Shown: positions 27,001 to 30,000, counted from the stretch's first letter. The stretch is 64,000 bases of DNA from Fimbriimonadia bacterium (GCA_041483895.1 JBGPGO010000018.1:1-64000), one strand, 5' to 3'. Program-made: the numbers.

Positions 27001-30000
27001 TCGCATACGTCTGAGCTCAGTTTGGCGATCCCGACGGTGCCAACAATCGTTCCTCTGAGGTCGGTGAGCACCCAGAACCGGCCTCCGGAATTGTTGTAGT
27101 TGGCTTCGACGTCCAAGACATCGGCATCGGTATCCACCGCATCGAATTCCATGCCGAAGCTGTTGAGGACCCCGGTTACGACGCCGACAATACCCTGGGT
27201 GTCGCCATTGGAAGCTTGGCGGAAGATCGGCTCGCACATCGCACTTATCGAGCCATGCCGATGCGGGTAAACGGTAGGAAGATGAATTCCGCGCGGCCGA
27301 TGACGCGCCATCGCTGCGTGAGGCCCCAATATCTGCCGTCGCTGCTGAAGGAACGGTTGTCCCCCATCATCAGGAAGTGGCCAAGGGGCAACGCCGCCGC
27401 CGGCTGGCTCCAAAGCTTGTCCTCCAGACCGCTAATGACATCGTGGATAGAGCGCCCGTTGATGCTCACACCCTCATGGGGGTCCTTTTGGAGCTGGATG
27501 TAGTACGGTGTGTCGGCGCGTCCCAGTTCGTGGATGATCATCTGCTCGTCCTCACTCAGCAGGCCTGGAGTGAGGTGGATGATCTTGAATTCCCTCTGTA
27601 TATCCGAGCCGAGGTACTTTTCCTCCACCTTTTGGTCGTTGCGATACAGATAGTAAGTGCCGGTCGCCGGATCCAATCTGGTCTCAATCTTCATTCCGGG
27701 GACGCCGATGCAGCGCTTGATGAAGTCCGTCTGCCCTTCCACCTGGCCGACATTCAGGGCCTCCCCCGGCGCCCGGAACACGACGATTTCCCCGACCCGC
27801 GGGTCCCGAATGCGATAGATGCCCTTATTGACGATGAGGTAGTCGTTCTTCATCAGCGTCTTTTCCATCGATTCCGACGGGATCCAGAACGTCTGCATCA
27901 GGTAAGGCCGGATGACGAGAAAGACGAGAATGCCGGCGTAAATGATGGCGTCTGCCAGATCGGCGACGAATCGTCCGGCTTTGAAGCCGGCCGTATCAGG
28001 GGCGCGGGCGGAAAGAAACAGCGCGCCGACCCGAACGATGGTCGCGATCAGCATCACCCACATCACCGTGGAATGGGGCGCCCTGGCTACCGATTCTACG
28101 AAGGCGGCAAGGCCGCTCGGCGCGGATTCCATCGACTAGCGCTTCTCCTTGATGCGGGCTGCCTTCCCAATCTTCTTCCGCAGGTAGTACAGCTTCGCCC
28201 TTCGGACCTTTCCCTTGCGGGTGACGACGAACTTGGCGACGCGAGGAGAATGGAGCGGGAAGCTGCGCTCGACGCCGATGCTGTGGCTGATCTTGCGGAC
28301 GGTGACCGATTCCGCGACGCCGCCGTGCTTGAGGCCGATCACCGTGCCTTCGAAGACCTGAATTCGCTCCTTGCCGCCTTCAATTACCCGCACATGTACC
28401 TGGAGAGTATCGCCCGGGGCGATATCCGGCAGGTCTTCTTTGATGTTTTTTGCGGCCATGGAGGCCAAAATCTCACCTTGGTTCATCTACTTCACCTCTC
28501 AACGCATCGGCCAGCAACCGAACGTCATTCTCCGTAATCGGCGCGCGCGCGAACAGATCGGGGCGAACAGTTCGCGTCTCTAGGAGCTGCCTGGCGCGTC
28601 TCCATCGTTGGATATCGCCATGATGGCCTGACAATAATACCTCCGGGACGCGCCAATCGCAATACTCTTCCGGCCGAGTAAATTGCGGATAGCCCAAAAG
28701 TCCGTCCTCGAAGCTGTCCTGGGCAAGGGATTCTTCGTTCCCCAGTACTCCTGCCAGGAGTCGGGCGATGCCGTCGATGATGACGAGCGCCGGCACCTCC
28801 CCTCCGGACAGAACGTAATCTCCCAACGATATGACCTCGTCGGCGACGTGCTCTGCGATGCGATGGTCGGTTCCTTCGTAGTGCCCGCAGATGAGAATGA
28901 GCTGTTCCAGCCCGGCCCACCGCTTCAGGTCTGCCTGGGTCAGGAGCTTTCCTTGCGGTTCCAATAGGACGACCCGGATCGCGGCCCGCTCCGTCACTTG
29001 CGGCTCGAACACTTGCGACTCGGTCAGGAGACCGGTCGCATCTAGCGGGAGACCGGTCGCATCTGCGGCCGAGATCCCCTCCCCCGCTTGCGGGGGAGGG
29101 TTAGGGTGGGGGCTCTTCATCCCCTCTCCGACTTGCGACTCGGTCAGAAGACCGGTCGCATCTAGAGGGAGACCGATCGCATGCGGGGGGTGGGGGTCTT
29201 CCAAACACCTCCGGACCGCCGAAACGATCGGCTCGACCTTCATCACCATCCCCGCCCCGCCGCCGTACGGAACATCGTCCACCGTCCTGTGCTTATCGGA
29301 TGTAAACTCGCGCGGATCGGTGACTTCGATGGCCAGGACGCCAATCTCTTGCGCCCGCTTCACGATGCTGTACCGGACAGCATCGCGGACCAGTTGAGGA
29401 AAAATCGTTAGAATATCGATGCGCATAGTCGTTCGCGATTGTGGCTTATTGGCCGAATTGACCGAAAGGATCAAATAGGATAAGCTAAGCCCAAACGCTG
29501 GCCCAAAAGGAGACATCCATGAGAATCGCGGGCAGTATCGCAGACCTAATCGGCCACACCCCCCTTGTCCGCCTGAACCGGATCGGCAAAGGCCTTCCGG
29601 GCGATATTGTGCTCAAACTCGAATTCTTCAACCCCTTATCGAGCGTCAAGGATCGCATCGGCGTTTCGATGATCGACGCGGCGGAGCAGGCCGGAAAGAT
29701 CAACAAGGAAACGATTATTGTCGAACCGACGAGCGGCAACACCGGCATTGCGTTGGCGTTCGTCTGCGCGGTACGGGGATACAAGCTTCTCCTTACCATG
29801 CCGGAAACTATGTCCATAGAACGCCGCAACATGCTGAAGGCCCTCGGCGCAAAGTTGGAATTGACCCCTGGACCCGGTGGCATGCCGGCCGCGATCGAGC
29901 GCGCGATGGAGATAGGGAAGTCGGATCCGGATCGCTACTTCATGCCGCAACAGTTTCAGAACCCAGCCAATCCGGATATCCACCGCAAGACTACGGCAGA

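Follow-up and report, generated by a model that had tools for sequence, protein, structure and literature searches.

Short palindromic repeats lie in frame within trmD and other conserved genes of a Fimbriimonadia bacterium

How did 73 codons made of hairpin repeats come to lie within the only trmD gene of a Fimbriimonadia bacterium, and what does the enzyme make of them? We addressed this question in a window of 64,000 nucleotides (GCA_041483895.1, JBGPGO010000018.1:1-64000), the whole stretch of DNA analysed, and then across the assembly. The gene lies at 28473..29426 on the minus strand as an open frame of 317 codons and encodes the tRNA m1G37 methyltransferase TrmD (317 aa; NF000648 at 292 bits, cut-off 220). 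It is the sole trmD of the assembly. NF000648 and TIGR00088 both score above cut-off and the invariant family columns are kept, including R222 and D237, which we take to correspond to E. coli R154 and D169. The neighbours, named from sequence, are presumably rplS on one side and a cysteine synthase-like gene on the other. TrmD is described as essential in most bacteria (excerpts of PMC6795141). The Pfam model PF01746 matches the gene in two parts, positions 2-53 at 29205-29360 and 56-195 at 28560-28985, separated by a gap of 219 nt (73 codons). This is the same split from which the initial annotation had read an in-frame repeat insert in trmD, and we found it again. In the nearest relatives, which belong to the same family and to another genus, TrmD is 66% identical, has 249 residues and holds a loop of 7-8 residues at the insert site, a net excess of 68 aa for the present protein (317 vs 249).

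The insert (28986..29204, minus strand) is stop-free throughout and is built from six pieces. A C-rich remnant at its N-terminal end (29185..29201, minus strand) resembles, by eye, the tail of a triplex-type repeat. It is followed by a degenerate 5' half of the repeat that we call REP1 (29163..29184, minus strand) and by a full REP1, copy A (29131..29162, minus strand), with a GATG tag, a bulged hairpin, one mismatch and a fold z of -5.2. The fourth piece is a BoxC/TM_ECO-like class II triplex repeat (29077..29113, plus strand) with a C stem, a G stem, a TTA loop and a second G stem; its reading on the gene strand is PHPNPPPQAGEG. A second 5' half of REP1, recognized from sequence in the repeat search (29043..29063, minus strand), and a full REP1, copy B (29011..29042, minus strand; no mismatches, fold z -6.2), complete the insert. 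Both full copies are read as DATGLLTESQ, and the two half-plus-full doublets are one 52-nt direct duplication (D6) of 94% identity. The window also holds what can be seen as an untranslated counterpart, an intergenic island found by repeat search (41552..41781, strand not assigned) with a triplex repeat, three REP1 and one R13. Elsewhere in the window, repeat search and family scan placed a GTAG-tagged R15 (19946..19966, plus strand) in frame in the linker of a FlgA-type gene (19610-20734). A suspected disruption of flgG by a repeat was ruled out.

An AlphaFold2 model of TrmD, computed from a 30-sequence alignment, renders the insert as a low-confidence loop between the helix at 64-76 and the strand at 150-161, with pLDDT of 43-62 in ten-residue blocks against mostly 83-96 elsewhere. 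A Foldseek search with the model matched solved TrmD structures, and as modelled TrmD retains its fold and catalytic residues despite the insert. The loop is insertion-tolerant in nature. For instance, the solved chain 7kff_A has ~58 residues between the two matched halves vs ~16 in its peers, that is ~42 extra in the same loop, and a genome of another family (G005) carries an independent 26-aa triplex-repeat insert in this loop. The CarB of that genome holds a 67-aa insert, at a site different from that of the CarB insert described below. The long TrmD loops of two further genomes (G003 and G013) were considered as repeat-derived and rejected, as their sequences do not look repeat-made. As a protein query, TrmD residues 55-165 found nothing beyond the protein itself, and a search of the insert against 1.84 billion representatives returned itself and three short ORFs that consist largely of triplex repeat; both searches are uninformative on the frequency of such inserts.

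Across the genome, we relied on 3,303 gene calls from our own hexamer model, in which inserts near N-termini in unfavourable frames could be lost. Seventeen repeat patterns were mapped. One of these, R14, had looked like a wholly intragenic family and was rejected because it is a protein repeat of 58-60 aa with 19/19 copies in repeat proteins; all island counts therefore use 16 patterns. The 892 copies of these fall into 514 islands, of which 57 are internal to genes (120 copies, 52 genes), 25 are gene-terminal and 432 are intergenic or at contig ends. Internal islands thus make up 11% of the total, against a chance expectation of 64%, the share of internal coding sequence in the genome, which means a strong depletion of repeats in genes rather than targeting. 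Islands of mixed families are somewhat more common inside genes (17/57) than outside (75/432; p 0.03).

Which genes carry these islands? A scan of 61 candidate proteins against NCBIfam and Pfam identified, among others, TrmD, Ffh, Era, HemW, CarB, AlaRS, PurL, PurA, HisF, AroE and MnmG, together with QueG, RsmG, a MutY-like glycosylase, a KdtA-like protein, an ImuB-like protein and DnaE2. By our own reading the family model spans or flanks the insert in ~40 of the 61; the earlier count of conserved host genes was 36. It had been claimed that orthologues lack the inserts, and the halves do adjoin in relatives for Ffh (55-aa insert; insert-free in the 29 relatives' loci compared), Era (71 aa), CarB (44 aa) and HemW (abutting at query 88/195), the last three in G001 and G002. 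AlaRS had likewise been listed as a repeat host. It has two inserts, and the orthologue halves abut in G001 and G002; the insert at aa ~606-640 matches a listed repeat and the second matches none. DnaE2 has ~330 inserted residues in three places (~140, ~115 and ~72) and holds 17 listed repeat copies, not the 10 first reported; an N-terminal extension of this protein is in frame in relatives as well. The assembly, 95% complete, contains no paralogue of 14 of the 16 hosts tested. A screen for broken genes gave 107 rows with coding signal on both flanks, 36 of which are open internal inserts. No repeat-broken gene appeared among the rows listed (three rows for contigs C8-C9), and by eye the remainder are ordinary junctions, a provisional reading.

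The inserts are not confined to proteins. The RNase P RNA (C17:36170-36590) is 421 nt long vs 338-346 nt in 5/5 relatives, and its extra ~75 nt sit at the tip of one hairpin, presumably P12, which they lengthen. The insert is a variant of the triplex repeat with 14 further close matches in the genome, two of them inside hemW. No repeat was found in the tmRNA of this genome.

The principal family is REP1, with 147 copies at <=2 mismatches to the original pattern (0 for the reversed-pattern control) and 148 once a C/T loop variant is allowed. Its bulged hairpin has a predicted fold z of -6.2 and bears GATG at the 5' foot in 138/148 copies. In all, 41/148 copies are internal to genes and 86/148 lie outside called genes. 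A total of 107/148 have no mismatch to the consensus, yet neither a close relative nor an empty allele dates their spread. The repeat units of this genome measure 21-37 nt, the inserts are mosaics of unrelated families, and R8, R9 and R15 begin with GTAG. The triplex repeat has 18/69 copies internal to genes. The published TM_ECO/BoxC consensus has 0 strict matches and 41 once one position of the third stem may be G, a change matched by compensating ones in the two remaining stems. The computed fold of this repeat is a Watson-Crick hairpin, and the triplex itself is putative. Where the triplex repeat and REP1 are neighbours, they share orientation in 20/22 pairs, including 6/7 intergenic pairs, which suggests a composite or the insertion of one repeat into another.

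The families had been called species-specific. This stands for REP1 within the order, since it was found in none of 30/30 relatives, in line with the earlier statement that the main repeat is missing from the nearest genomes. It does not stand more widely: the triplex repeat occurs in 7/30 relatives, one Chloroflexota MAG holds the exact REP1 25-mer, and a second one a sister family tagged with GTAG. In a genome-contig collection the exact 28-nt REP1 gave 0 matches, against 17 loci, spread over 2 MAGs, for a relaxed pattern. The invasion had also been called recent, a word we would not keep. The closest relatives belong to another genus (TrmD 66% identical) and the degenerate half copies and internal duplications point to layering over time.

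The repeats are linked to RAYT transposases. The NF047646 model identified eight full-length RAYTs, seven over cut-off, and one fragment. A reading from Pfam Y1_Tnp that no RAYT lies beside REP1 was rejected, because that model found only 6 and tblastn, a motif scan and NF047646 add two. The RAYT of REP1 (C12:73415-73951; NF047646 85.5 bits, cut-off 80) has one REP1 upstream and eight variant REP1 downstream in opposite orientation. R2 flanks the RAYT at C5:229682, R9 flanks those on C20 and C3, an R10-type repeat those on C6, C21 and C27, and a further family the RAYT at C6:123200 (its count of 197 copies, from a 17-mer at 2 mismatches, was discarded because the pattern was too permissive). 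The proposed RAYT linkage is thereby supported and extends to REP1, and the families that flank RAYTs number five instead of four. In a Ca. Limnocylindrales MAG (Chloroflexota), a sister of REP1 with an unbulged stem and a canonical GTAG tag lies 48 nt downstream of a RAYT-like ORF, which in that MAG matches the C12 RAYT best, though weakly (37% over 54 aa). Among 68 loci with RAYT relatives in metagenomes, full-length matches are 22-39% identical and the flanking repeats are unrelated, none REP1-like. For the triplex repeat, R4, R6, R7 and R8, no flanking RAYT was found in the 95%-complete assembly.

REP1 is a high-copy, short, imperfect palindrome that flanks a RAYT in inverted orientation and carries a tetranucleotide at its 5' foot, and the repeats are mostly extragenic, as the 432/514 intergenic or contig-end islands and the REP1 copies outside genes attest. 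Its tag is GATG, which differs from the terminal GTAG, or GYRG/GTGG, of the GTAG-tagged superfamily. By these features and its short length, REP1 qualifies as a RAYT-associated REP, but as neither a GTAG-tagged REP nor an RPE (the Rickettsia palindromic element). From the REPtron arrangement, and by analogy with in vitro work on other REPtrons (excerpts of PMC8266576), we infer that the C12 RAYT would be what moves REP1.

We favour, at a probability of about 75%, the reading that the inserts are mobile hairpins of the REP/BIME type, which reached genes and then passed through a filter of selection. The machinery would be the eight full-length RAYT (TnpA-REP) HUH-tyrosine nucleases, each of which is observed to be flanked by repeats. 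Such an enzyme would bind the single-stranded hairpin together with the tetranucleotide on its 5' side (GATG here instead of GTAG), cut, and transfer the strand, giving copies genome-wide; the binding and cleavage step is drawn by analogy from the biochemistry of E. coli, Stenotrophomonas and Marinomonas (PMC8266576, in part). Repeats that have no RAYT, above all the triplex repeat, would be carried along with islands already in place or enter them by recombination, and these would enlarge by local duplication into mosaics of 30-140 residues. A statistical signature shows that most insertions into genes are purged, and that those kept are stop-free, in loops or linkers where examined, and read in the frame for an acidic, Arg-poor, flexible peptide.

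It is also conceivable that the repeats spread without RAYTs, through replication slippage, triplex- or hairpin-induced breaks or recombination between copies, while the RAYTs merely maintain their own flanks. The triplex repeat fits such a course, as it has no cognate RAYT here and yet occurs in 7/30 relatives, and so does the 52-nt direct duplication within the trmD insert; Holder et al. linked TM_ECO to local instability and did not find a mobile element (PMC4666352, in the parts available). Slippage accounts for local growth but not for the way in which 107 identical copies of REP1 are scattered across many contigs, and five families stand in a REPtron arrangement, with a REP1-RAYT pairing that recurs in another phylum. 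We regard RAYT-independent spread as unlikely.

Could the inserts be adaptive, as mRNA hairpins that tune translation or decay or as acidic loops that regulate enzymes handling RNA and DNA? Many hosts do handle RNA or DNA (TrmD, MnmG, QueG, RsmG, AlaRS, Era, Ffh, MutY, ImuB and DnaE2), a point also made for repair genes by Di Nocera et al. (PMC3733652, excerpts), and the TrmD loop was struck independently in two families. But the hosts also include glycosyltransferases, hydrolases and transporters, a tolerant loop explains the recurrent TrmD insertion equally well, and orthologues do without the inserts. Moreover, the mismatches of REP1 copies within genes (6, 1 and 2 by codon position) do not concentrate at third positions, so the peptide sequence bears no sign of conservation. 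An adaptive role appears quite improbable to us. On the favoured reading of filtered mobile hairpins, the insert peptides are most likely translated, near-neutral passengers, as far as their sequences tell.

The inserts had been described as always lying in an open frame. For called genes this is partly circular, and the informative quantity is which of the open frames is used. REP1 is stop-free in 5/6 frames and the TTA form of the triplex repeat in 4/6. In internal islands, the DATGLLTESQ frame of REP1 is used in 18/31 island-frames vs an availability of 21% among intergenic copies, and the PHPNPPPQAGEG frame of the triplex repeat in 14/17 vs 19%; in islands with REP1 only, the main frame is used in 8/18. 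Because the two repeats travel together, these counts are linked, and we therefore ran a permutation within islands, restricted to repeat-encoded codons (10,000 permutations; 55/57 islands have another open frame). The net charge per residue of the used frame was -0.061 vs +0.046 expected, and the Arg fraction 0.058 vs 0.127 expected, values reached in 0/10,000 permutations. The result persists in the 26 islands that contain neither REP1 nor the triplex repeat; the frame choice noticed earlier concerned REP1 alone. The same permutation on 103 intergenic islands showed no bias (p 0.52), and intergenic copies between co-directional genes showed no preference for the sense strand (REP1 25 sense, 34 antisense). 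The more acidic the best open frame of a family, the more often that family is intragenic (Spearman -0.63, n=16, a test inflated by related families). R8 and R11, for which even the most acidic open frame is basic, are internal in only 0/41 and 1/35 islands.

The acidic, Arg-poor used frames, together with the null intergenic control, argue for translation of the inserts and for a filter at the peptide level, to the extent that sequence statistics speak to it. A target-site rule tied to codon position may also lie behind the frame bias. Our literature search found no published test of a frame or charge filter; early RPE papers may discuss frame preference. It is hard to see the inserts as untranslated, removed by ribosomal bypassing or RNA excision: they form stable predicted hairpins in genes that must work, but skipped or spliced elements need neither the stop-freeness nor the acidic frames that the inserts show, and the mosaics have no common ends, which makes this reading very improbable. 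No RNA runs carrying the stretch were listed.

The trmD junctions had been reported in public contigs, and among four sediment runs (X1-X4) we saw both crossed: the N-terminal one by contigs of X1 and X4, without differences, and the C-terminal one by contigs of X2 and X3, the latter with one difference, outside trmD. The contigs reach each junction separately, none spanning the whole insert, and the source sample may itself have yielded the best run. No joint that skips the insert, and no empty-site allele, was found in these four runs. An assembly artefact of the metagenome bin, to which these limits and the repeats at 17/86 contig ends might point, is hardly credible, given the crossed junctions and the fact that misassembly would neither keep 57 islands in frame nor give them a bias in charge.

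Mobile hairpins filtered by selection would make this genome a natural map of ~50 insertion-tolerant loops in conserved enzymes. The frame analysis provides a quantitative, controlled signature of translation and peptide-chemistry filtering, for which earlier work had argued and for which we found no measurement in the papers searched. A naturally occurring RAYT and REP whose guide differs from GTAG also offer a direct test of the guide-complementarity model of cleavage-site choice; in the scheme given in the available parts of PMC8266576, GATG is predicted to select CA via positions 3-4 and CT via positions 2 and 4. More speculatively, a GATG-guided RAYT subfamily might still be actively adding peptides to the proteins that a free-living bacterium makes, with occupied loops serving as landing pads, essential enzymes accreting acidic disordered segments of 50-140 residues, and the frame filter acting as a general rule for palindromes that colonize genes. 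We hold this only tentatively. If it were true, bacterial proteins would routinely gain new disordered regions from REP/RAYT systems, and some inserts, such as the 330 extra residues of DnaE2, may have been co-opted.

The phenomenon itself is already published, in the RPEs of Rickettsia and the intragenic REPs of Opitutus terrae, and the present genome is an unusually large and clear example. Our analysis adds a RAYT cognate to REP1 and its GATG guide, inserts that are large and of mixed composition, the insert in RNase P RNA, an insertion in parallel in G005, and a frame filter tested against controls. The initial contrast with classical extragenic REPs was overstated, since REPs within the genes of DnaE2, FGAM synthase and tRNA synthetases are already on record (PMC3733652). 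Di Nocera, De Gregorio & Rocco (2013; PMC3733652, of which parts were available) described intragenic REPs in many species and suggested neutral insertion in linkers. As here, the O. terrae REPs are short tagged hairpins of several families per genome, linked to RAYTs, with dozens translated in frame; by our count, part 1/3 of supplement 3 of that paper lists 70 intragenic entries in 62 ORFs, and dnaE2 and FGAM synthase are hosts in both genomes. The differences are the GATG guide of REP1, against the GTAG/CGTC of those REPs, and the mixed-family mosaics of up to ~110-140 aa, against O. terrae entries of up to ~50 aa; clusters of 43-82 aa are reported at another place in the paper. The main text of that paper makes no mention of acidic character, charge or disorder.

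The REPtrons of E. coli, S. maltophilia and Marinomonas likewise combine a HUH-tyrosine nuclease of ~180 aa (NF047646), bulged hairpins in inverted flanking positions and a foot tetranucleotide (PMC8266576 and PMC6006769, in part). The present system differs in the GATG guide and in the 41 of 148 REP1 copies internal to genes. In PMC6006769 the defining mark of a REP is a GT[AG]G guide, and atypical structures also receive mention; a GATG guide is absent from the main text of that paper, and its supplements could hold such a family. The TM_ECO/BoxC/PIT repeats share with our triplex repeat a C stem, a loop, a G stem, a TTA loop (type A) and a second G stem (PMC4666352, excerpts). According to the same source, TM_ECO is always intergenic in E. 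coli K-12, whereas here 18/69 copies are internal to genes and a variant lies in the RNase P RNA; the repeat here also differs from TM_ECO by the compensating change across all three stems.

The repeats behave both like intragenic REPs and like the RPEs. The latter are the original case (Ogata et al. 2000, 2002, through reviews), and in Rickettsia they form in-frame inserts in conserved proteins and lie in the RNase P (M1) RNA, as here (PMC2229807 and PMC10969869, in the parts available), and also in tmRNA; an RPE-bearing guanylate kinase stays active according to a review (PMC2229807, in part). RPEs are single elements of 105-146 bp with long stems and terminal inverted repeats, in a reduced intracellular genome (PMC2229807 and PMC10969869, excerpts). 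The repeats here are instead 21-37-nt units with cognate RAYTs in a 3.9-Mb genome from sediment metagenomes, and none is a single element of the RPE kind. The RPE-like nature first proposed for the inserts in conserved genes is thus supported as one of behaviour, not of membership: the repeats work like RPEs, in frame in conserved proteins and, as now extended, within a structured RNA gene.

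REP1, the GATG-tagged hairpin repeat, has its own REPtron on contig C12 of the genome under study, G000 (C12:72939-74100, locus L159), in which a RAYT gene that was not picked up by Pfam is accompanied by eight REP1 variants arrayed in tandem. The spacers of this array contain a purine-rich tract similar to one arm of the BoxC/TM_ECO-like triplex repeat; the REP1-triplex composite may have arisen here. Pfam also missed a second RAYT (C6:122600-124300, L160), which is 47% identical to that of C12. It is flanked by a repeat family other than REP1, some members of which start with GATG; the family has roughly 90 matches, all short.

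Three RAYT copies (C6:19328-19924, C21:32184-32780 and C27:26305-26901) share 81-91% mutual identity, and the C-terminal codons of each enter its own R10-type repeat. In the window, 16357-16644 holds R10-type repeats next to a fragment that matches the C-terminus of the R10 RAYT, probably what is left of a REPtron. We rejected R14 as an intragenic repeat family: the proteins concerned (C2:277875-279605, C6:133747-137093 and C9:20676-21917) consist of 58-60-aa repeats that are nearly identical at the DNA level and so mimic one.

The imuB-dnaE2 pair (C8:63553-69256) holds 21 listed repeat copies; its DnaE2 is enlarged to about 1,500 aa and, as in relatives, is fused to a small N-terminal domain. 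The ~55-aa insert of AlaRS (L088, aa ~383-443) looks like ordinary protein, has no match among the listed repeats and is missing from five relatives. An intact flgG in the window is followed directly by a gene (19610-20734) whose FlgA-type product has a FlgE/F/G D1-like domain at its N-terminus. One hairpin of the RNase P RNA (C17:36170-36590, minus strand; L266:1501-1921) is lengthened by a triplex-type repeat of ~75 nt, which is missing in 5 of 5 relatives.

In trmD of both same-family relatives, G001 and G002 (L002, L003), GHYGG stands in place of GHYEG, a motif that is usually conserved. G005, from an unrelated lineage, carries triplex-repeat inserts of its own in TrmD and CarB (L005, L264), the former in the same loop as in G000 and the latter at another site; it is a second genome suited to the frame test, the within-island permutation of charge and Arg among open frames.
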